DNA from: an uncultured Trueperaceae bacterium
GTDB lineage: Bacteria > Deinococcota > Deinococci > Deinococcales > Trueperaceae
Reading direction: 5' to 3'
Length of the DNA: 64,000 nucleotides
Assembly (NCBI GenBank): GCA_963799485.1
Contig: CAWCXJ010000005.1
Span: forward strand, 128,001 to 192,000
Position 1 is the stretch's first letter. Each line of letters starts with the position of its first letter. This document shows positions 16,881 to 32,591 of the stretch, piece by piece. Position numbers and translations under genes: made by a program. The notes under the pieces were generated by a model, which was given only the letters and a program-made list of their open reading frames with translations, did no database searches and was not told the DNA's origin.

Positions 16881-17855
16881 GTGAAACAACTTCTTGCACT
16901 GCTCGCTCTTGGCGCTGCCGCTTCTGGTACGGCGTTCGCCCAGTCCATCGCCGTAGACGGTTCTTCAACGGTTTATCCCATCTCGCTGGCGATGGCTGAA
17001 GAGTTCCAGATCATCAACCCCGACGCCCAGGTTACCGTCGGTTTTGCCGGTACCGGCGGCGGTTTTGAGCGCTTTTGCGCCGGTGAAACCCAGGTTTCAG
17101 ATGCCAGTCGCGTCATTCAAGACGATGAGGTCGCCGCCTGCGACGCTGCCGGTATCCCTTTTATCGAGCTGCCGATTGCCGCCGACGCGCTGACCGTCGT
17201 CGTCAACCCCAAAAACGACTTTGTAACTTGTTTGACGACCGAGCAGCTGACCCAAATCTGGTCAGCGGGTGGCGGCGTCACCAACTGGAGCGACGTCAAC
17301 CCCGACTGGCCCGCTGAACCCATCGACCTCTACGCCCCCGGCGTCGATTCGGGAACGTTCGACTACTTTAACGAAGCCATTATCGGCGACGGCAACGAGA
17401 TTCGCCAGGACTTCTCGCCCAGCGAAGACGACAACGTACTCGTGCAAGGCGTCCAGGGCAACGAGTATGCGATGGGCTTTTTCGGTTACGCCTACTACGC
17501 CGAAAACCCCGACACGCTAAAAGCCGTTGAAATCGACAACGGCAACGGCTGTGTCGCGCCGAGCGCCGAAGCCGTCGTAGATGCGTCTTACGAGCCGCTC
17601 TCACGCCCGCTATTTATCTACGTCAGCCAAAACGCGGTCGACAACACTCCGGCGGTTGGCGATTTCGTCAACTTCTACCTTTCGCCGGATAACCGTGAGC
17701 TGATTACCAGCACGGGCTATGTAGCCTACGACGCCGCCGTGTACGAGGCTGTGCAAGGCCGTTTTGACAACCGCGTTACCGGGAGTGCCTTCGCTAACTT
17801 TCAGCCGGGTGACAACGTAATTGAAGCGGTGCAGAGCGCTGAAGAAGCTCAGTAA
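16881..17855 (+). CDS. pstS: Phosphate ABC transporter substrate-binding protein
   Basis: DGSSTVYP, GTGGGF, DSGTFDYF, SEDDN, YEPLSRPLFIY; AGGAGG RBS. Confidence 0.95.
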   Translation: MKQLLALLALGAAASGTAFAQSIAVDGSSTVYPISLAMAEEFQIINPDAQVTVGFAGTGGGFERFCAGETQVSDASRVIQDDEVAACDAAGIPFIELPIAADALTVVVNPKNDFVTCLTTEQLTQIWSAGGGVTNWSDVNPDWPAEPIDLYAPGVDSGTFDYFNEAIIGDGNEIRQDFSPSEDDNVLVQGVQGNEYAMGFFGYAYYAENPDTLKAVEIDNGNGCVAPSAEAVVDASYEPLSRPLFIYVSQNAVDNTPAVGDFVNFYLSPDNRELITSTGYVAYDAAVYEAVQGRFDNRVTGSAFANFQPGDNVIEAVQSAEEAQ

Positions 17856-17927
17856 ACTGAAAAAGCTCAGCAAAGCTGTAAAGCGCACCTGACGCTCAGC
17901 TGACACTGCGCTGAAATACCTAGACTA

Positions 17928-17957
17928 AGCTAGTCCTTAGCTGAGGACTGGCTTTTT
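17928..17957 (+). terminator. Hairpin/terminator between pstS and pstC
   Basis: AGCTAGTCCT-TAGCTG-AGGACTGGCT followed by TTTT. Confidence 0.6.
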
Positions 17958-17987
17958 CTTATTCAATTCTTTAGTCCGGGAGATTAC

Positions 17988-18932
17988 ATGGCGACCAGAA
18001 CGCCGAATTCGGTGCTAGATAGGGCTCGAGCTGTGGGCCTCAACAAACGTACAAGTCGGCGGGCTGGCGAGGCTGTTATCGGGACGCTCCTGCTCTTGTG
18101 CGCGCTCATCTCGGTGGTGACGACGGTTGCCGTCGTTTTTTCCATCGCCGAGGAAACGGTGCAGTTTTTCCGCGAAGTCTCTGTCGCCGAGTTCTTTACC
18201 AGCCGCGTCTGGGCGCCGCTTTTTGCCACCAAAAGCTTCGGTATCGCGCCGCTCGTGATCGGCACGCTGATGGTCACCTTTATCGCCTGCATCATCGGTT
18301 TGCCGCTAGGCCTCGGCGCGGCGATCTACCTCGCCGAATTTGCGGGCGATAAAACGCGCCGCACGATTACCCCGATTTTAGAGGTGCTGGCAGGCATTCC
18401 CACGGTAGCGCTCGGCTACTTTGCGCTGCTCTTCGTAACGCCGGTTATTCGCAATATCATCCCCGGCGTAAATTTTTTCAACCCGATTTCAGCAGGGATT
18501 GTTATGGGTTTTATGATCATGCCGACGGTCACGTCGATCTCGGTCGATTCGCTGCGCGCAGTACCCCGGAGTTTACGCGAAGCGGGCTACGGTCTCGGCG
18601 CGTCGAAGTATGAGCTGATTACCAGGGTGATCGTCCCGGCGGCGCTTTCAGGTATCGTGGCGTCGTTTATTCTGGCGATCTCGAGGGCTATCGGTGAAAC
18701 GATGATCGTGACGCTCGCCGCCGGTCAAAAACCGACTTTCACCCTCGACCCACGCGAAACGATTGCTACGATGACCTCGTTTATCGTCCAGGCCGGAACC
18801 GGCGACCAGCCTGCCGGATCGATCGGGGCGCGCTCACTCTACGCGGTCGCCGCCGTGCTCTTTACCATGACGCTGCTTCTCAATATCGCGTCGCAACAGG
18901 TCGTGCAGCGCTTTTCGGAGCGTTACGAATGA
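17988..18932 (+). CDS. pstC: Phosphate ABC transporter permease
   Basis: LEVLAGIPTV, EAA loop, SRAIGETMIV. Confidence 0.95.
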   Translation: MATRTPNSVLDRARAVGLNKRTSRRAGEAVIGTLLLLCALISVVTTVAVVFSIAEETVQFFREVSVAEFFTSRVWAPLFATKSFGIAPLVIGTLMVTFIACIIGLPLGLGAAIYLAEFAGDKTRRTITPILEVLAGIPTVALGYFALLFVTPVIRNIIPGVNFFNPISAGIVMGFMIMPTVTSISVDSLRAVPRSLREAGYGLGASKYELITRVIVPAALSGIVASFILAISRAIGETMIVTLAAGQKPTFTLDPRETIATMTSFIVQAGTGDQPAGSIGARSLYAVAAVLFTMTLLLNIASQQVVQRFSERYE

Positions 18933-20308
18933 AAGCATCTATCGAAGCTCCCGCTGTGGCGCGCCGCCCCGCCAAACGCCTCGTCAGCGCCGGCGAAGCG
19001 CGTCGCCTTGCTGCGCGTACCCGGATGGGCCGCATTTTCGCGGTCGTGACTTTCGTTCCGGTCGTGCTGGCGGTCGCGCTCGTTGTTACTTTGTTGCTCG
19101 ATACGCTTTTCGATACCTTTTCATGGCAGATCGTCGAACCGAGTAGCAGCGTCAGTGCTCAGACGTTTGCGTGGTCGGCGGCACCCCTTGGGGGTTACCA
19201 GGTTGTCCGCCTAGACCTCGAGGCGCAAGGCGAAACCCCGGCAGACATCGCCGCGTTTTTCAACGACCCTGAAGAGCTGCGCCTGTTCAACGCGCGCAAC
19301 CGCATCGAACTGATGTGGCGCACGCAGGACGGCCCCTTTCGCTGGGTCGTCACCAACAGTCGTGACGACGGCGTTGCCGACATCGGACTGTTCGGCGTCA
19401 ACGGTTATTTGAGCGGAGTACGAGATGACCTGGCAGAGCAAGACGCAGCGGATTTAGAACCTGCCGCACAAATTCTCCTAACCCGCCTGCAAGCTGCGAA
19501 TTTGGCTTCGTGGAATCCTTTTGCCAACACCGGTCTGCTGGCAAGCACCTTGACAGAGGGTCAAAATCTCTACCTAAACCCGTGGCTCGACTTTTCGTTC
19601 TTGACCAAAAACGCCTCGCGTACACCGGTGGTGGCGGGGCTCAGCGTCGCTTTATTGGGGACACTCTGGGTTATCGGTCTGGTCATTTTGTTTACTCTGC
19701 CGACCGGCGTCGGCGCGGCGATTTACCTCGAGGAGTACGCCTCGGCAAACCGGTTCTCACGACTTTTAGAGGTCAATATCCGCAACCTGGCAGGCGTTCC
19801 CAGCATCGTTTACGGCATTTTGGGTCTTTACCTGTTTGTGCGTCTGGCAAACATCGGCCCGACGATTTTGTCGGCCGCCCTGACCCTTTCGCTGCTCGTT
19901 TTGCCGGTCGTGATTATCGCGGCGCGTGAGGCGATCCGCGCCGTTCCGAGTACGTTACGGCAAGCGAGCTACGGCCTCGGCGCAACCAAGTGGCAAACGG
20001 TCGTTTCGGTCGTTCTGCCTAACTCGGTCGGTGGTATCGTCACCGGCGTTATTCTAGCGATTGCCAGGGCTATCGGTGAAACCGCGCCGCTCCTCTTGGT
20101 CGGCGCAGTCGGTTTTATCGTCTTCCCCCCCGACGGCCCGTTTTCGCGTTATACGGTGATTCCTTCACAGATTTACAACTGGATTGCTGAAAACGACCCC
20201 GAGTTCGCGCACGTCGCCTCGGCGGGTATTATCGTGCTGCTCGTTATCTTGTTTGTTCTTTACGGTCTGGCTTTTTATCTGCGCCGCCGTTTCGAGCGTT
20301 CGTGGTAA
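18929..20308 (+). CDS. pstA: Phosphate ABC transporter permease with enlarged extracytoplasmic loop
   Basis: [30 protein letters not shown] overlap with pstC. Confidence 0.93.
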
Positions 20309-20333
20309 CCGAAACAGCCACCAAAGGAGTTTT

Positions 20334-21170
20334 ATGACAACAGCGACGAAGCCCCAACCCGGTGAACCTAAAGCGTTCGATTTCAAGCAGGCGTCGGTGC
20401 GAACCGACCCGGTAGGCGATGAACAGTCCGTCGTGAGTATTCACGACTTCAGCCTCTGGTACGGCGACTTTCGGGCACTTCACAACATTTCGCTCAACGT
20501 CCCGAAAAATCAAGTGACGGCTTTGATCGGCGCGTCGGGTTGCGGTAAATCGACGCTGCTGAGAAGCATCAACCGCATGAACGACCTTATCCCGACGGTT
20601 AAAACGGAGGGTACGGTTACTTATGAAGGCGTCGACCTCTACGACCGCGCCGTCGATCCGGTCGAGGTGCGTCGCCGCGTCGGGATGGTTTTTCAAAAGC
20701 CCAACCCGTTCCCCAAATCGGTTTTCGATAACGTCGCCTTCGGCCCCCGGCTCAACGCGTACAAGGGCGACCTGAACGCGCTCGTCGAGAAATCTTTACG
20801 GCGCGCGGCCTTGTGGGAAGAGGTCAAGGACAAGCTCAAAGGCTCCGGTTTGGGACTCTCGGGCGGTCAGCAGCAGCGTCTTTGTATCGCCCGGGCGATG
20901 GCGACCGAACCCGACATCATCTTGATGGACGAACCGACCTCGGCGTTAGACCCGATGTCCACGGACAAGATTGAACAGCTGATTCACGAGATTAAAAAGG
21001 AATACACGGTTATCATCGTGACGCACAACATGCAGCAGGCAGGGCGCGTTTCCGACCGGACGGCGTTTATGCACCTCGGCGTGTTGATCGAAGAGGGGCC
21101 GACCGACCAGATTTTCACGAACCCCAAACACGAGATGACCGAGCGCTACGTCGAGGGACGGTTCGGTTAG
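20334..21170 (+). CDS. pstB: Phosphate ABC transporter ATP-binding protein
   Basis: [48 protein letters not shown] before ATG 20334. Confidence 0.96.
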
Positions 21171-23831: not shown

Positions 23832-24305
23832 TCAGGCGGCGGCAGGCTCCGCGCCTACCCCTTTATTATGCGCGGCACGCGCAGAACGCGCAACCCCTAT
23901 GAGGAAAACAGTGATGAGCGTAAACGCGGTGAGCGCAAGCAACGAAATGGTGATGAAGCCGCGCCAGTTGATGTATTCCTGAGAGCAGGGAACACCTGCG
24001 CGGCAGATACTCGGGGGGCGAAACCCCGGTACTTTTTGCTCGAGGTAGTAAAACGTCGAAACACCCATACCCGAGATTGAGAGCGGCAACGCGTAACCGA
24101 CGATGCTGCGGTCTTGGCGGCACGAGGCGATCCCCCAAAAAATTACGCGTGGGTACATCAGAATGCGCTGATAACAGCAGAGCGTACACGGAACAAAGAG
24201 CCGCGCCTCGCTAAAATACAAACTTCCGGCAGTTGCGACGATGGCAAGCAGCCACGCCGCGTAAAGTCCAAACCCGTGAAAAAAGCTAGTTGGCCTGCGC
24301 GTTTT
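23832..24305 (-). pseudogene. BdbC/DsbB-like disulfide bond formation protein, probably decaying
   Basis: LYAAWLLAIVATAGSLYFSE..PCTLCCYQRILMYP...C...PCS...FITI. No ATG, GTG or TTG lies upstream of the first TM helix, and several usually conserved residues are substituted. Confidence 0.65.
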
Positions 24306-24637: not shown

Positions 24638-25010
24638 CGGTGCACGTTACGGTTCACGTGGTTTTTACGGGATTTTCCCGCGCTACTGACGCTTCTATCT
24701 CCAGGTAAAGTGCCACAGGTCAAGCGTAAAACCGCAAACGGACGCCTTCAGCTGATACGGAAAGCTGTGCAGCACGTCCTTTCCCGAATCGGTACAACAG
24801 GGTTTTACAGACCGTTTTACCCCGCAAAAAGGTTTGTGTAGAGGCTCGAGCGTACCGGGTGTGACCGGCATTTCGCCAACCGAGGTGGTTTTGCTTGAAA
24901 TGTAAGCTAGGGCGCTAGACAGCTAAAAAAGGCGGGCGTAGCGTACCGGGGGGTAAAGGCTCGGGACTAGGGGCCGACTACGCTCAAAAACCTGATTCTG
25001 AGGGGGGATT

Positions 25011-25853
25011 ATGGAATTTGCAGGTGGGTTCGTTCCGGTTGCAGGTCAAGTCGGGTTGTTGTCGATGGTGGCCTACTACTGCATCTTCGCGGCGGTGTTC
25101 GCCTTGGGCGCGGCCTTTGTGTTCTTTCTGGCGGCTGAAAAGCGCGTTGCCCCTGAACACCGTTCGGAAATGATCTTATCCGCGCTTATCGTCGGGGTGG
25201 CAGCGGTTTCGTACTACCTGATACGTGGTTTTTTCCAAGACGCGCTGCGCAGTGTCGCCAACGCGCAAGACCCGGCGGCGCAGCGACGGCTTATCCAGAA
25301 CGCGTACCTCGCTGTCGGTCAGTACCGCTACGTAGACTGGCTGATCACGACGCCGCTACTTTTGCTTAAAACCGTCTTGGTTTTAGAGGCCAAACCGCGC
25401 AAACTGTGGGGGGCGCTGACGATCTTGCTCCTCGCCGACGTGTTTATGGTCGTTACCGGTTACATCGGTGAGCAGCAGTTCTCCGCCAACGGTAGCGTAG
25501 ACGTTCAGGGACGACTCTTCTGGGGTTTTATCGCGACGATCGGCTACGTCATCATCCCCATCACCCTGCTCTACATCTACCGGCGGTTCAAAGCGGGCGC
25601 GCATCCTTGGGAGCGCCGGGCGTTTAAGATTTTGGCGTTTGCGACCGTTACGACCTGGGGCGTTTACCCGCTCGGCTACCTCGTCCCGGCGCTCTGGCCG
25701 CAACTGTCTTACAACTGGATCAACATCGTGTTTAGTATCGCAGATGTGCTTAACAAAGTTGGCGCAGGCGTCGTAATCTATATCGGCGCAGCGAGGGTTC
25801 TAGAAGACCGGGTACCCAAAGACGCGACCCGGCAGGCTCGAGAGGTCGCCTAA
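25011..25853 (+). CDS. Microbial (type 1) rhodopsin, DTK motif
   Basis: Seven hydrophobic helices; helix C RYVDWLITTPLLLLK; helix F WGVYP; helix G ADVLNK (Schiff-base Lys249); GAGGGG RBS. Confidence 0.95.
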   Translation: MEFAGGFVPVAGQVGLLSMVAYYCIFAAVFALGAAFVFFLAAEKRVAPEHRSEMILSALIVGVAAVSYYLIRGFFQDALRSVANAQDPAAQRRLIQNAYLAVGQYRYVDWLITTPLLLLKTVLVLEAKPRKLWGALTILLLADVFMVVTGYIGEQQFSANGSVDVQGRLFWGFIATIGYVIIPITLLYIYRRFKAGAHPWERRAFKILAFATVTTWGVYPLGYLVPALWPQLSYNWINIVFSIADVLNKVGAGVVIYIGAARVLEDRVPKDATRQAREVA

Positions 25854-25975
25854 AAAGCCTACGGTCTCCTGCTTGCTGTGGATTAAGTTTCAGTAGAAGT
25901 CCCAAACCGGTGTGCAGAGATTATCGCAGACAAAACCCGCAGTACGTACGACTGCGGGTTTTGTCTGCCGCTTTT

Positions 25976-26790: not shown

Positions 26791-27141
26791 TCATGGTTCA
26801 TCCTCAGCGCTCAGCTGCGCGCCGCACGCGTCCCACTCGTCGGCGCTGCCCGCTTCACGGTAAAAGGGCAACCCCCGCAGATAGCCCGAGCGGGCGATCA
26901 TATAGGCTGACAGCGGCGCGGTCAAAAAGAAAAAAGCAGTGATGAGGACGATTCTCGAGACCGCCAGTGGCGTCCCGAAACGGAGCGCCGCCGCGATAAA
27001 AATCCCTATCCCGCCGAGTGTAACGAGCTTGGTCGAGGCGTGCAACCGGGTGTAAAAGTCGGGAAAACGGAACACACCGATAGCGGCTGCCAAGATAAAA
27101 AAGCTGCCGAAGAGCAAGAACAGGTCGCTGACGAGCTTCAT
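26791..27141 (-). CDS. mrpG: Mrp Na+/H+ antiporter subunit G
   Basis: RFPDFYTRLHASTK, LTAP; start at MKLVSD overlaps the mrpF stop. Confidence 0.9.
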   Translation of the reverse strand: MKLVSDLFLLFGSFFILAAAIGVFRFPDFYTRLHASTKLVTLGGIGIFIAAALRFGTPLAVSRIVLITAFFFLTAPLSAYMIARSGYLRGLPFYREAGSADEWDACGAQLSAEDEP

Positions 27142-27395
27142 TTGAGTACCTGGCGTAAAAGCAAATAACGGGTCAGCGCCACCGTTGTCAAAAAACCCAG
27201 GATCGACACGAGCAGCGCTACGTCGAGAAAGCTCTCGAACCCGGTGCGAATAGCCAAAACGACGATCAGAACGGCCAGGTTGACGGTTAAAAAATCGAAG
27301 GCGGTAACGCGGTCGCCCCACGACGGCCCCCGGACGACACGGTAGACGGCGAGTGCCACGGCAATAAGAAGACAGACAAGTGCGACGGTGGTCAT
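27138..27395 (-). CDS. mrpF: Mrp antiporter subunit F
   Basis: RVVRGPSWGDRVTAFD; three TM helices. Confidence 0.9.
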   Translation of the reverse strand: MTTVALVCLLIAVALAVYRVVRGPSWGDRVTAFDFLTVNLAVLIVVLAIRTGFESFLDVALLVSILGFLTTVALTRYLLLRQVLK

Positions 27396-27408
27396 CTAGC
27401 TTCCCTTC

Positions 27409-27873
27409 TCACTTCATAAACCCCAAAATGCGTGTTTCCATCTTTGTCACGCTCTCCCGCGCCTCGTCTACGTCCTTGATGTTGATGGCGTGGGCGTAGA
27501 GCAGCTTGCGGTCGGCCGAGACGCCCATCGCTACCGTTCCCGGCAAAAGCGTGATGGTCGCGCTCAGGAGCGAAATCGCGGCGTCGCTACGCAACCTGAG
27601 CGGTACGGCGATGATGTGCGGATAAAAGACCGGACGGCGGCGCAGTGCGAGGAGCGCAATCAGGATATTTGCCAGCAGCAGCTCCCAGAAAAACGCGCCC
27701 AGATAACGGATAAACGCCCCCAAACGACGCGCAAACGACTCGCCGCCGCCCCGCAACACACTCAACAAAAGTGCCGCCAGCAGGCCACCGACGATTAAAT
27801 TATAGGCGGTCAGCTCACCGACCAGAATAGGCCACAAAAGTGCAAAGAGAAACAAGATGAAGACTTGACTCAC
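27409..27873 (-). CDS. mrpE: Mrp antiporter subunit E
   Basis: ITLLPGT, LYAHAI. Confidence 0.9.
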   Translation of the reverse strand: MSQVFILFLFALLWPILVGELTAYNLIVGGLLAALLLSVLRGGGESFARRLGAFIRYLGAFFWELLLANILIALLALRRRPVFYPHIIAVPLRLRSDAAISLLSATITLLPGTVAMGVSADRKLLYAHAINIKDVDEARESVTKMETRILGFMK

Positions 27874-29417
27874 GGCACCCGCTCCGGTGCTGTCTCCTGT
27901 GCTGCTTTTACTGTTTCTTGCGGCAGAACCCTCGAGATATAAGCCTCAGGCGTTCTCAGCTGCGCCGCAACCCGCTCGGAAAGCGCGTAAACCGGGCCAC
28001 TCGCCACAGCGAGCAGTACGAGCAGCGAACCCGCGACCGCCGTAATCCGCCACATTCCTGTGGGCAACGCGACTTTATGAACGGCGTCCTCGTCCCCCCA
28101 GAAAAAGCCGCGCCAGACGGCGATACCGGCGTAAAGGAGGAGTAACCCGGCGGCAACGGCGACCGTTGCCACGCCGATGCGGAGTGCGCCGCCGGTTTCT
28201 AAAAGCGCCTGAATCAGGGCGAACTTGCCGATAAACCCGCTTGTCGGCGGGAGGCCGGCAAGGGCCAACGCCGCGACAAAATAGACCGCCCCTAAGAGCG
28301 GGTACGCGCCCAGGTGCCCCTCGGTGTGGTCGCCGAAGCGTTCCCCGGCGATGAGTTCAGCAAGTCCGGCGAGCAAAAAGAGGGTAAAAATCACCAGCAC
28401 CGAATGGACGAGGTAGTAGAGCGTCGGGGCCAGTGCGCCGCTCCCGATCCCCATCACCAGATACCCGACCGAGGCGATGTTGGCAAACGCCAGCAGGTGC
28501 CGCCAGCGGCGCTGCGCCACCGCGCCGAGCGCGCCGAACAAGATGGTCAGTCCGGCGAGCAGCAGGAGCGTGTTGCGTAAACCCGTCTCTGCGGGTGTCA
28601 GCAGCGTAAAAAGCCGCAAAAGCGCGTAAACCCCGACTTTGGTCAGCATGGCCCCGAAAAACGCCCCGACTGCACCCGGTACCACCGGGTAGCTGTACGG
28701 CAACCAGAACCCGAACGGGAAGGTGGCAGCTTTGGTGGCGAAGACGAGCGCTAACAGGGCGGCGACGAGCGTCACGCGGGTGTCGCCGGTGACACCCTGC
28801 AAACGCAACGCGATATCGGCAAAATTGAGCGTGCCGAAAAGGCCGTAGGCCAACCCCGCCGCGGCCACGAAGATGGCCGAGGCCACGAGGTTGACGACCA
28901 CGTACTTAAAGCCTTCGCGGAGTTGCGGCAAGGTGCCGCCGATCAGCAGCAGGCCATACGAGGCGATGAGCATCACCTCGAACGAGACGAACAGGTTAAA
29001 GAGGTCGCCGGTTAGAAACGACATGTTGACGCCCATAAACAAAAATTGTAACAGGGCCAGGGTGCCCAGCTTTTCGCGGAGGCCGTTAAGCAGCGGCGAC
29101 GCACCCCGGCGCGGCGCGCGCTTTAGGCTCGAGCCCGCATAAACTGTACTTAAAAGCCCGGTCACCCCCGAAAGCAGCAGCATAATCCCGGTGAGACCGT
29201 CGGCAACCAGGGTAATCCCGTAAGGCGCGGGCCAGCCGCCGAGCTGCGTGACGAGAATCTCACCGGAGAAGCTGAGAACGGCGAGCCAAAGAGACGCGAG
29301 CAGCGTCAGTAACGAGACGATAGCTGAAGCTAAGGCCCTAGCCTGCGGCGTCCTGAGCAGGAGCAGCAGTGCACCCCCGAAAAGGGGCAGCAGTACGGGT
29401 AGCGTCAGGGCGATCAT
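27870..29417 (-). CDS. mrpD: Mrp antiporter subunit D
   Basis: DLFNLFVSFEVML, KAATFPF.FWLP..Y, TKVGVY, GLPPTSGFIGK. Confidence 0.93.
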   Translation of the reverse strand: MIALTLPVLLPLFGGALLLLLRTPQARALASAIVSLLTLLASLWLAVLSFSGEILVTQLGGWPAPYGITLVADGLTGIMLLLSGVTGLLSTVYAGSSLKRAPRRGASPLLNGLREKLGTLALLQFLFMGVNMSFLTGDLFNLFVSFEVMLIASYGLLLIGGTLPQLREGFKYVVVNLVASAIFVAAAGLAYGLFGTLNFADIALRLQGVTGDTRVTLVAALLALVFATKAATFPFGFWLPYSYPVVPGAVGAFFGAMLTKVGVYALLRLFTLLTPAETGLRNTLLLLAGLTILFGALGAVAQRRWRHLLAFANIASVGYLVMGIGSGALAPTLYYLVHSVLVIFTLFLLAGLAELIAGERFGDHTEGHLGAYPLLGAVYFVAALALAGLPPTSGFIGKFALIQALLETGGALRIGVATVAVAAGLLLLYAGIAVWRGFFWGDEDAVHKVALPTGMWRITAVAGSLLVLLAVASGPVYALSERVAAQLRTPEAYISRVLPQETVKAAQETAPERVP

Positions 29418-29438
29418 AACGGTATTTTCATAATATTT

Positions 29439-29855
29439 TCATGCGCGTGAGTGCCGCGCGCCCTGAGTTTCCGGCGAGACCGACGGGTGTTCGGGATCGG
29501 CGTAAATACGTTGCGGCGTCGCCGGGTCGGGTTTTTCTAAAAGCTCTTGTACGTGGTCGGTACCGGTCGCCTGAAACGCGCGCATGGCGAGCACCAAAAG
29601 GAGGGAGGTGGTACCGAACCCAATGACGATGGCGGTCAGGATGAGCGCTTGCGGGAGCGGATCGACGTAGGGGCCTTTGAGATTTGTCAGCGGCGGGTCG
29701 CTGAGTCTGCCGCCGGCAACCAGCAAGATCGACAAGTTTGCACCGTAGGCGATCATCGACAACCCGATGATCAGGCGGATCATCGCCCGTGACAAGACCA
29801 GGAACACGCCGGTACCAACCAAAAGTGCTGCGAGTAGCGGCAAAAGCAGCTCCAT
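29439..29855 (-). CDS. mrpC: Mrp antiporter subunit C
   Basis: DPLPQALILTAIVIGF. Confidence 0.93.
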   Translation of the reverse strand: MELLLPLLAALLVGTGVFLVLSRAMIRLIIGLSMIAYGANLSILLVAGGRLSDPPLTNLKGPYVDPLPQALILTAIVIGFGTTSLLLVLAMRAFQATGTDHVQELLEKPDPATPQRIYADPEHPSVSPETQGARHSRA

Positions 29856-30325
29856 CAGTCCTCCTGCGCGTCGAGCGGCGCGAGCGTCGTATCGGTATCT
29901 TCGGCTAAAAGTTCGATGATGGTCAAAGTCGTGCCGACCACGACCAAAAAGACCCCGGCGTCAAAGAGCACCGCCGTCGCCCACTCGAACTCACCGATCA
30001 GCGGCCACGTCAGGTAGCCGTAAGCGGACTTCAAAAAGGCTTGTCCGAAGACGAGCGGCACGACGCCGGTGAGGAGCGCTAGCAGCAGCCCCCACGGTAA
30101 GAGGCGTTGCGGCGGCAGGTTCAAAAAGGGCCGGTCGAACACGATTCGCGACAAAAGCGCGGCGACCGCGACGATGAGCCCGGCGATAAACCCGCCCCCC
30201 GGCGCGTTGTGACCCCGCCAAAAGAGGTAAAAGCCTAGAAAAACCAGCACGAACACGACAGGTCGAGCGAAGGTTTGAAAAAACAGCTCGAGCCCGCGTT
30301 TATCGTGTTTATCAGTCATGTTCAT
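29855..30325 (-). CDS. mrpB: Mrp antiporter subunit B
   Basis: GHNAPGGGFIAGL, FDAGV. Confidence 0.92.
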   Translation of the reverse strand: MNMTDKHDKRGLELFFQTFARPVVFVLVFLGFYLFWRGHNAPGGGFIAGLIVAVAALLSRIVFDRPFLNLPPQRLLPWGLLLALLTGVVPLVFGQAFLKSAYGYLTWPLIGEFEWATAVLFDAGVFLVVVGTTLTIIELLAEDTDTTLAPLDAQED

Positions 30326-32591
30326 CACGTTCCTTTTCAGACACCGTTTTAACCTTGAGCAGCGCGTAGACGCTCACCCCGACAATCGCCAGCACGGTAA
30401 TCTCGCCGAGTGTGTCGTAACCTCTAAAATCGACTAGAATCACGTTGACGACGTTGTAACCGCCGGCTCCCGCTTTGCTCTCGGTAAGAAAAAACCGCTG
30501 TAACCGTTCGCCGATAGGCGTCTGCACTGCTAACAGCGCCCCAAAGACCGTCAAACCGACTGCGCCGGAAAGCGCAGCGTCGAAAAAAGAAGCGCGCCGC
30601 GAGCGGCGGTAACGGGTCAGTCTGGGCAGGTAGCGAAACACCGAGACGAACAAGATGACGGTCACGGTTTCGATTAGCAGCTGCGTCAGGGCGAGGTCGG
30701 GGGCGCGGAGTGCGACGAACAGCAAAACAAGCGACAACCCGGCCAAACCGGAAAAAATCAGCGCTGAAACCCGCGCCTGGGCAATGATGACGCCGTAGGT
30801 GCTACCCGCGACCAATAAGGCAGCGGCGAGAAACTCGAGCGGTACCGGGCTCAGGTTTTGCGGCAAATACGCGCCTAGACCGACAAAGGCAAACCCCACC
30901 CCGAGCAGCGCGACCGGCAGCCACAACACCCGCAGTTGTGCGGCGAAGGTGGCGTTTTGGGTTCTGGCGGTGGCAAAACGGGCGGTGCGCTCGAGGCCGC
31001 CCATCAGCGCGTAATATACCGTGTTGGCGTTCCACGAGGGTGTCAACACCTCTTGCAGTCGACCGAACGGACCTATGAGCGCAAAAAGCACGATCCCGGC
31101 TCCCCACGTCCAGAACGACAAGATGAGCATCGGATTAAAACCGTGCCAGAGATAGAGCGCTTCGGGTTCGAACCCGAGTGCCGGCGCCGCAAGCGCCACA
31201 ACCGGCGTCGCCAAAGTTGCCTGCCACGGAAAAACGCCGAAAAGCACGACGAGGACGCTCAGCAGCGCAGGTGGTAAGAGCATCCACAGGGGCGCTTCGT
31301 GCACGTTGGGGCGGTGACAGCGGTACGGCCCGACGAATACCCTTAAAAACTTGAGGCTGTACGCAAAAGTCATCACACTGCCGACGACCGCGAGCGCAAT
31401 CGGCAACGTCCCGCTACGCAGCATCTCCTCATAAAACAGCTCTTTGGAGATAAAGCCGCCGAACGGAGGCAGGCCCGCCATCGACAGCGCTGCCGGAACT
31501 GCAATCAGAAACGTCCAGGGTAGTTTGCGGGCAAGCCCCGACAGTTCACGGATGCTGCGGCTGCCCGTTTCGTGGTCGATGCTGCCGACGACCAGAAAGA
31601 GCGCCGCCTTAAACGTGGCGTGGTTTATCAGCTGCGCGGTCGCCGCAAGCGGATAGCCCGCGCCGTAAAGCGCTGTTAAAAGCCCGAGCTGTGAAACCGT
31701 CGAATAAGCCAAAAGTGCCTTGAGGTCGTCTTGTTTAAGCGCCAGATACGAGCCCCAGACCATCGTCACGAGCCCCAGGTAGAGCAGCCCGTCCGACCAT
31801 GCGCTCAGCACGAACAGCGGCGCGAACTTGGCTAAGAGGACGATACCGGCTTTGACCATCGTCGCCGAGTGCAGGTACGCCGAGATCGGCGTGGGCGCTT
31901 CCATGGCAGTCGGCAGCCAGATATAAAAGGGAAACTGCGCCGATTTGGTCAGTGCGGCAAAGAGCAAGAGCGCGAGCGCCGGGACAAACGACGAACTCTG
32001 CCGAACGGCAGCAAAGTCGAGCTGAGACAAGTTGACGCTGCCCCCGGCAAGGCTTAAAAGAATCACCGACGCGAGGAGCGCCAACCCACCCGCCGCCGTA
32101 ATCACGAGCGCCTTGAGCGCCCCGTCTTGCGCCGCGCGGCGTTCGTCCCAAAAACCAATCAGCAGAAACGACGCGACCGAGGTCAACTCCCAAAACGCGA
32201 ACATGGCGATCAGGTTGTCGCTCAAGACGAAGCCCAGCATCGCGCCGCCGAAGAGCAGCAGATAGCTGTAAAAACGTCCGTGCCGCTCTTTCGGGCCGAG
32301 GTACGACGAGGCGTAAACCACGACCAGAACGCCCATCACCGCGACGAGCAGCGCAAACAGCAGCGAAAACCCGTCGGCGCGAAACGAAAGCGTGAGATTG
32401 ATACCCGGAACCCACGCCGCGCTCCCCGCAGCGGGTGTGCCGTGCGCTGCCGGAATCAGGGTAGCGAGTGCCAGTGCCGGGGCAAAGGCGAGCGTCAAAG
32501 GCCACCCGGCCCGCGCGCCCAGCGGTCGCGTCAAAAAAGGTGCGAGCAGCGCCCCTAGAAAGGGGGTGAAAACAGCTAGAACGAGCAGCAT
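30312..32591 (-). CDS. mrpA: Mrp antiporter subunit A
   Basis: FWELTS, TKSAQFPF..WLP.AM.APTP.SAYLHSATMVKAG, NVVNVILVDFRGYDTLGE. Confidence 0.95.
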   Translation of the reverse strand: MLLVLAVFTPFLGALLAPFLTRPLGARAGWPLTLAFAPALALATLIPAAHGTPAAGSAAWVPGINLTLSFRADGFSLLFALLVAVMGVLVVVYASSYLGPKERHGRFYSYLLLFGGAMLGFVLSDNLIAMFAFWELTSVASFLLIGFWDERRAAQDGALKALVITAAGGLALLASVILLSLAGGSVNLSQLDFAAVRQSSSFVPALALLLFAALTKSAQFPFYIWLPTAMEAPTPISAYLHSATMVKAGIVLLAKFAPLFVLSAWSDGLLYLGLVTMVWGSYLALKQDDLKALLAYSTVSQLGLLTALYGAGYPLAATAQLINHATFKAALFLVVGSIDHETGSRSIRELSGLARKLPWTFLIAVPAALSMAGLPPFGGFISKELFYEEMLRSGTLPIALAVVGSVMTFAYSLKFLRVFVGPYRCHRPNVHEAPLWMLLPPALLSVLVVLFGVFPWQATLATPVVALAAPALGFEPEALYLWHGFNPMLILSFWTWGAGIVLFALIGPFGRLQEVLTPSWNANTVYYALMGGLERTARFATARTQNATFAAQLRVLWLPVALLGVGFAFVGLGAYLPQNLSPVPLEFLAAALLVAGSTYGVIIAQARVSALIFSGLAGLSLVLLFVALRAPDLALTQLLIETVTVILFVSVFRYLPRLTRYRRSRRASFFDAALSGAVGLTVFGALLAVQTPIGERLQRFFLTESKAGAGGYNVVNVILVDFRGYDTLGEITVLAIVGVSVYALLKVKTVSEKERDEHD

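Follow-up and report, generated by a model that had tools for sequence, protein, structure and literature searches.

The lysine-donor type of rhodopsin pump is itself already known. Three families with the helix-C motif DTK have been tested, ESR, HeimdallR and ACB, and all pump H+ outward (PMC12137139; PMC7148096); the HeimdallR family is described as shallow and archaeal. A preliminary description of the DNA analysed here had called DTK rare, with ESR as the classic case, which overstates the rarity in view of the three tested families. In ESR, the Lys donor carries no charge in darkness, proton uptake follows, and the Schiff base is then reprotonated (PMC8387761). According to a second ESR study, the proposed exit path runs through Asp85, His57, water and Glu214, His57 lowers the pKa of Asp85 (2.3 in the wild type versus 6.3 in H57M), Thr43 was calculated to raise the pKa of Lys96 by 1.9 units, and the wild-type protein already pumps at pH 4.5 to 8.5 (PMC11155677). 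The His–Asp pair is a defining feature of proteorhodopsin-like pumps; what it does has been argued mainly from mutants. In the reference table of PMC12137139, all 8 DTK rows have the helix-B His, and none of the 8 lies in the clade described below.

The window (the whole 64-kb stretch of DNA that was analysed) contains a DTK rhodopsin gene whose stop-free translation of 280 aa matches Pfam PF01036 (E 7e-33) and whose GC3 is 0.71, compared to 0.67-0.76 in neighbouring genes. An in-frame stop four codons upstream fixes its start codon. The gene and its immediate signals are:

25011..25853, plus strand: type-1 (microbial) rhodopsin gene of the 'NewDTK' clade, stand-alone, 280 aa (Pfam, alignment, trees)
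25000..25007, plus strand: Shine-Dalgarno-like run GAGGGGGG (sequence)
25926..25968, no strand assigned: perfect 18-bp hairpin between the convergent rhodopsin and CRP-family genes, present as a single copy in the genome

The rhodopsin gene is flanked by a copper-chaperone gene in divergent orientation and, on its other side, by the convergent CRP-family gene, no same-strand ORF adjoins it, and these flanks are unlike those of an 89%-identical relative (L008). From its sequence and position, the hairpin is likely to be a terminator common to the rhodopsin and CRP-family genes; no sigma-70-type promoter was found on the plus strand upstream of the rhodopsin gene. On the minus strand, 23832-24221 encodes an apparent disulfide oxidoreductase (DsbB/BdbC-like) fragment that covers profile positions 26-135, scores just below the cut-off, and may be truncated or frameshifted. 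A few kb from the rhodopsin gene lie an Mrp-type Na+/H+ antiporter operon (27138-32591, minus strand) and a Pst phosphate-transport operon (16881-21170, plus strand), both named from translations; neither was seen as a common neighbour in related loci.

We assigned residues to columns by phmmer alignment to solved structures (4hyj, 9jtq, 3ddl), counting the numbering from the printed alignments, and compared them across a pool of 253 distinct clade proteins (fetched sequences of 255-305 aa whose clade-profile score was 250 bits or more). This pool takes in the sister sequence P0154 and a few degenerate paralogues, and its members are not independent samples. The positions that bear on function are:

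25158..25160, plus strand: H50 in the cytoplasmic A-B turn (PEHR), His in 247/253 clade proteins
25167..25169, plus strand: E53 on the column of ESR Thr43 (4hyj alignment), Glu in 1/253 and Ser in 223/253
25209..25211, plus strand: S67 in place of the helix-B His of PR, XR, ESR and HeimdallR, Ser in 246/253 and His in 1/253 (P0154)
25224..25319, plus strand: B-C extension (residues 72-103), predicted to form a helical hairpin on the extracellular side (AlphaFold2 DSSP H48-84, H88-123)
25326..25370, plus strand: helix C motif by alignment, with R106, D109 (proton acceptor), T113, L117 (green-tuning position) and K120 (Lys donor)
25524..25538, plus strand: G172-F173-x-x-T176, equivalent to xanthorhodopsin G156-F157-x-x-T160, predicted fenestration at the retinal ring (3ddl and 9jtq alignments)
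25722..25724, plus strand: N238, aligned with ESR Glu214, a position with His in 239/253 and Asn in 7/253
25743..25757, plus strand: D245 as second counterion and K249 as the lysine of the retinal Schiff base, Asp in 252/253 and Lys in 247/253

Residues S67, R106, D109, T113, K120, D245 and K249 lie where the preliminary description had put them. S67 falls on the His column of ESR (4hyj, H57), HeimdallR1 (9jtq) and xanthorhodopsin (3ddl); K120, a position singled out beforehand for checking, aligns with the ESR donor Lys; and the full outward-pump set R106/D109/T113/K120/D245/K249 aligns with both ESR and HeimdallR1. Helix C is strongly conserved in the clade (D109 in 246, T113 in 250 and K120 in 241 of the 253 proteins), and E154 supplies a Glu on the ESR E130 column. 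The only His residues in the protein are H50 and H198. The first is a possible proton-collecting site near the donor, to judge from its conservation, and an equivalent His occurs too in some other DTK proteins. Asn at 238 occurs in a small branch that holds several sequences at 86-89% identity, and Glu at 53, beside the donor Lys, is private to the window protein among the 253; this singleton might reflect neutral drift or a mistake in the assembly.

The B-C region had been described as a long loop. Its length is borne out, with 39 residues from S67 to R106 (a spacing found in 209/253 clade proteins) versus 25 in ESR, but its reading as loop or coil is not, as AlphaFold2 predicts a helical hairpin with helix B running to residue 84 and helix C starting at 88. 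The AlphaFold2 model (25 sequences; pLDDT 86.7, pTM 0.85) has seven long helices plus short terminal helices, with a pLDDT of about 85-91 in the B-C segment, where L79 is kept in 245/253 clade proteins. The top structural match of the model is ESR (4hyj; Z 27.0, rmsd 2.1 over 234 residues), and the matches as a group are ESR and PR/XR-type pumps, several of which lie within 1 Z and are thus tied. The ESM Atlas returned generic rhodopsin clusters only.

By phylogeny, the window protein is a member of a well-supported clade, not an orphan, and by its residue signatures it is probably not an ESR-family protein. The clade received 100/100 support in IQ-TREE under both LG+G4 (59 rows) and LG+C20 (33 rows), in hand-picked subsets where database proxies stand for ESR, HeimdallR and ACB; for FastTree, 14 of 194 rows were removed beforehand as fragments. 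Its sister is P0154 (99/98 under LG+G4 and 99/99 under LG+C20), an unnamed 287-aa DTK protein with a long insert and with both the helix-B and the helix-G His, which likely represents an intermediate state. Deeper ties to the HeimdallR-like P0172, the ESR-like P0182 and other DTK lineages are unstable between models. A sister relationship to HeimdallR (P0172) had 97/96 under LG+G4, was unsettled under LG+C20, and is not claimed; free trees placed the ESR-like proxies P0182 and P0186 elsewhere, and an AU test did not reject a grouping with them (p = 0.058) in a tree that did not include ESR itself. Alignment and trees uphold the earlier claim of a little-studied DTK clade distinct from ESR and lacking the helix-B His, and the outward-pump part of that claim is likely as a prediction. 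The clade is not alone in combining a lost His with a Lys donor, because other His-less DTK lineages occur among the 50% representatives. P0166, P0168 and P0169 are His-less, fenestrated DTK proteins with short B-C loops and long C-termini on a branch near the clade.

The nearest named relatives, at 89, 60 and 55% identity, come from Truepera sp. and Trueperaceae, in keeping with the Deinococcota-like origin proposed earlier. A protein search found 443 relatives, of which the best 120 were listed, and a genome scan found 69 loci with related rhodopsins, from Truepera, Deinococcus, Hymenobacter, Spirosoma, Mucilaginibacter, Ilyomonas, Lewinella-type Bacteroidota, Chthoniobacterales and others. 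In the same phylum, 11 of 364 genomes had a match, and 2 of these 11 matches contain internal stops.

Several members depart from the common pattern. In a nested Spirosoma subclade (P0148, P0150, P0151, P0155, P0156, P0159, P0162, P0170; L067:5001-5789), the acceptor Asp, the retinal Lys or both have been lost and the helical insert is kept; from their sequences, these paralogues are possibly retinal-free opsins with another role. An upstream DUF305 gene is common to L065, L067, L068, L071, L072, L075 and L032. Among the Deinococcus-order loci (L156, L157, L158, L160, L161), several have Ala or Asn for the donor Lys (DTA/DTN), and L157 and L161 carry internal stops. In P0066, a 446-aa database entry, tandem ACT domains are fused to a clade rhodopsin, and read-through or a frameshift may have produced this fusion as an artefact, because ACT is a separate following ORF in 8 Verrucomicrobiota-type loci (e.g. 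L063:5879-6343). The related Trueperaceae-type genomes at L089 and L120 encode odd xanthorhodopsin-like proteins with helix-C motifs DTA and YTS.

The clade already carries a label. Supplementary Table S4 of Inoue et al. 2021 lists 12 rows as 'NewDTK' (PMC7979833), so that a check on placement put the window protein inside a named clade, for which we found no measured representative. The base wavelength of 'NewDTK' is given as 'NA', and therefore, by that paper's definition, no absorption maximum had been reported for any representative; the absorption predicted by machine for the DTK rows is near 542 nm, and the main text makes no mention of DTK (PMC7979833). The link to the window protein comes from two listed rows, AMR28740.1 (P0389) and WP_070746711.1 (P0122), which are 46% identical to it and score 373 and 417 bits, respectively, on the clade profile; P0121, inside the 100/100 clade, shares a 90% cluster with WP_070746711.1. 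By our own position mapping, 22 of 23 compared positions of the retinal-pocket string match the listed Hymenobacter rows, the exception being A175 for Ser. Unlike most 'NewDTK' members, which have H, S and S at these positions, the window protein has N238, E53 and A175, and no Truepera sequence is among the 12 rows. The main texts of Bulzu 2022 and the CryoR paper contain no mention of DTK, and no tested clade member was found in open-licence PMC and bioRxiv main texts.

The main risk to the clade's uncharacterised status is HnPR of Hymenobacter nivis. HnPR of strain P3T is reportedly the subject of two studies, Kondo 2024 and Terashima 2019. In H. nivis S9.2P, the only rhodopsin found is a clade member; Hymenobacter genomes also encode ordinary DTE proteorhodopsins, and no P3T record occurs among the named matches or the cluster members listed (40 of 109 for one cluster). 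We consider it doubtful that HnPR belongs to the 'NewDTK' clade.

We read the window protein as an outward H+ pump powered by light, with a probability of roughly 0.8 on the evidence of its sequence. It probably binds retinal at K249, and it is predicted to move protons out of the cell under green light, with energy harvesting as the role of the stand-alone gene. After retinal isomerisation, the Schiff base would give its proton to D109, with D245 as second counterion; K120, uncharged in the dark, would take up a cytoplasmic proton and then reprotonate the Schiff base; and D109 would let its proton out late in the cycle. We infer this order by analogy with ESR and HeimdallR1. On the exit side, the clade has Ser where ESR has His57 and His where ESR has Glu214; the co-occurrence of these states, together with P0154, suggests that the helix-G His took over part of the relay, with one clade counting as one event. 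Because the window protein has Ser67 and Asn238, only R106, S67, E154 and water would be left to tune its D109. On the uptake side, E53 may form a pair with K120 that raises the pKa of the lysine, and the carboxylate might keep K120 protonated. The fenestration glycine, the clade His at the Glu214 column, Glu53 and a blh gene elsewhere in the genome were all missed in the preliminary description.

Identity to tested pumps is about 28-31%, and a three-letter motif alone does not settle function (PMC10154332). The helix-B His is not needed for pumping, because KrActR and QsActR, listed as proton pumps in PMC12137139, have Ser or Ala there; in His-less DSE rhodopsins, pumping is absent or very small and the photocycles are slow (PMC10865882). 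Drift away from pumping does occur, as the nested clade paralogues without acceptor Asp and retinal Lys indicate, and the window protein could behave unlike its clade because both His residues are absent and Glu53 is private to it. The earlier suggestion that the pump might work across more of the pH scale finds no support: in the DTK prototype ESR, His loss narrows the acid range, because the counterion pKa rises from 2.3 to 6.3 in H57M (PMC11155677). His-free pumps (KrActR, QsActR) and His-free near-non-pumps (DSE) both occur, and the counterion pKa is not predictable from His loss. In green proteorhodopsin, the effect of the His on the counterion pKa is opposite to that in ESR.

A protein that binds retinal but cycles slowly without the His and the Glu214 equivalent might instead serve as a photosensor, or pump very weakly, with any signal relayed to a partner, perhaps by the extracellular hairpin or by the helix at the C-terminus. 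His-less DSE rhodopsins act in this way (PMC10865882), the Spirosoma paralogues that keep the hairpin without acceptor Asp and retinal Lys suggest a scaffold role beyond pumping, and a CRP-family regulator adjoins the rhodopsin gene. That regulator gene, however, is convergent and is not among the ORFs beside the 89% relative, blh is the only widely common neighbour of clade rhodopsins, and no transducer is widely common to the related loci. Acceptor and donor are also strongly conserved in the clade (246/253 and 241/253), whereas sensory rhodopsins have no cytoplasmic donor (PMC10519204). We therefore judge the sensor or weak-pump reading unlikely.

Less probable still is that the clade pumps and the window allele is atypical or crippled, with a Glu53-K120 salt bridge and a D109 pKa raised by the absence of both His residues that would leave it active only under alkaline conditions or barely active. 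Glu at 53 in 1/253 and Asn at 238 in 7/253, the increase to 6.3 of the counterion pKa in ESR H57M (PMC11155677) and the broken copies in the phylum (stops in 2/11 matches) would fit such an allele, but the ORF is intact with GC3 like that of its neighbours (0.71 vs 0.67-0.76), the N238 branch comprises several sequences at 86-89% identity, and carboxyl donors are functional in ESR (PMC8387761). We give least credence to transport of another ion (outward Na+ or Li+) or inward proton pumping. Some DTG/DTS rhodopsins are reported as Na+/Li+ pumps despite an Asp acceptor (PMC10154332), but the window protein has no NDQ motif, it has Asp and not the xenorhodopsin Pro at the D212 position, its genome already encodes NDQ and TSV rhodopsins, and every tested DTK protein pumps H+ outward (PMC12137139). 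Outward proton pumping remains our preferred reading.

Retinal supply for such a pump is no gap. The window contains no blh gene, as had been stated, but a copy is present elsewhere in its genome (G000; 3.66 Mb, 99.99% complete, 4.63% contamination) at C13:100839-101675, with a TIGR03753 score above the cut-off, and the genome also encodes lycopene beta-cyclase (crtL) and crtI, so that retinal can be made. Of the two enzyme types proposed for a genome search, blh was thus found and an RPE65-type oxygenase was not found in G000. At the 69 related loci, blh is the commonest common neighbour, lying within the fetched flanks of 27, with crtY in 5 (both Pfam-checked; many flanks are short), and its orientation near clade rhodopsins is convergent, tandem or divergent by lineage. 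It was unmatched in 8 of 20 clade-bearing genomes, including that of the 89% relative; the 20 had mostly been picked from loci where no blh adjoins, in genomes whose completeness was not given. The window's genome holds three rhodopsins. Besides the DTK protein, it encodes an NDQ rhodopsin of the Na+-pump type (C7:226862-227692, minus strand; L002/L007) and a TSV rhodopsin (C6:418846-419769, minus strand; L001/L006) closest to cyanobacterial chloride pumps (E 6e-69), so that predicted pumps for H+, Na+ and Cl-, each from a separate clade, occur together in one Truepera-like genome; blh adjoins none of them. A heliorhodopsin search of G000 gave no match, and its control was unmatched too.

The same genome contains a carotenoid cluster (C13:262658-269305; L171) with a CrtO-like ketolase that scores below its equivalog cut-off, a lycopene-cyclase-domain/CruF fusion whose CruF-like partner is a hydratase, an unassigned ORF, a glycosyltransferase and a CrtD-like desaturase. 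These gene families make a monocyclic keto-carotenoid likely in the host, and the cluster suggests a glycosylated keto-carotenoid product. In the rhodopsin, the fenestration glycine G172 is kept in 253/253 clade proteins, Y223 lies on the xanthorhodopsin Y207 column in the 3ddl alignment, and the HeimdallR1 antenna contacts T142 and F149 correspond to F173 and V180. An antenna is plausible because of the invariant fenestration Gly, the XR-like neighbours and the host genes of keto-carotenoid type; a fenestrated non-binder is known in ACB-G35, which has no antenna (PMC12137139). That the xanthorhodopsin-type fenestration holds a carotenoid antenna is accordingly a tentative proposal, to which we give less than even odds.

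Taken as a whole, the widest version of our reading would make the clade a so-far untested fourth lysine-donor pump family in at least four bacterial phyla, with stepwise rewiring of the extracellular path, His-free pumping, and use of blue light via a host keto-carotenoid in the xanthorhodopsin-type fenestration; in this full form, we consider it on the unlikely side. On the stepwise reading, the helix-G His at the ESR-Glu214 site would have come first, as P0154 has both, and the helix-B His would then have been lost; in the Truepera-like branch, the second His would have been lost too and a Glu gained beside the donor Lys. Because the clade has both-His (P0154), helix-G-only (239/253) and neither-His (window) states, all three with the Lys donor, the role of the His–Asp pair is testable on naturally evolved proteins. 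Given its frequent occurrence in Hymenobacter, Spirosoma, Mucilaginibacter, Chthoniobacterales and some Deinococcota, in many cases next to blh, the clade may also be an overlooked light-energy route outside the sea. If the host carotenoid does bind, the protein would represent a new antenna system.

Among known systems, HeimdallR1 (PDB 9JTQ), an outward H+ pump with a xanthophyll antenna (PMC12137139), is the best PDB sequence match of the window protein (E 1.4e-25). The two share DTK, the fenestration Gly (G141 of HeimdallR1 = G172), Tyr206 (= Y223) and Asn at the helix-G column, but identity is about 30%, and HeimdallR1 keeps the helix-B His, a short B-C segment and an ICL3 insertion. Membership in the HeimdallR family was rejected on S67 and the roughly 30% identity to 9jtq, which the family proxy P0172 matches at E 1.6e-89. 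ESR (PDB 4HYJ) has the same Lys donor, D/T acceptor pair and Glu at the E130 column (E154), at 28-30% identity; in the window protein, His57 is replaced by Ser and Glu214 by Asn (His in the clade), Arg213 is lost, and the B-C spacing is 39 rather than 25. ESR is not fenestrated (Tyr), whereas the window protein has the fenestration Gly. On residue signatures, assignment to the ESR family was likewise rejected, as the His57-Asp85 pair is absent (S67) and the FPLLxG/LRE signatures (PMC10519204) are replaced by KTVLVLE/NWINI. A xenorhodopsin-type inward H+ pump was rejected because the Pro at BR Asp212 is absent, with D245 there, and an NDQ sodium pump because helix C reads D-T-K and not N-D-Q. 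Xanthorhodopsin (PDB 3DDL) and Kin4B8-type proteins resemble the window protein in G156/F157/T160/Y207 (= G172/F173/T176/Y223) and in an extended B-C region; xanthorhodopsin differs in having DTE with the His and in forming a separate supported branch, and the B-C extension of the window protein is predicted to be helical. The P1 clade (KrActR, QsActR, DSE) offers the parallel of a natural helix-B His loss in the PR/XR superclade with a fenestration Gly, but with a Glu donor versus Lys in the window protein. Because P1-resembling His-less DTE/DSE proteins fall on the XR side, we infer that the helix-B His was lost independently in the two clades.
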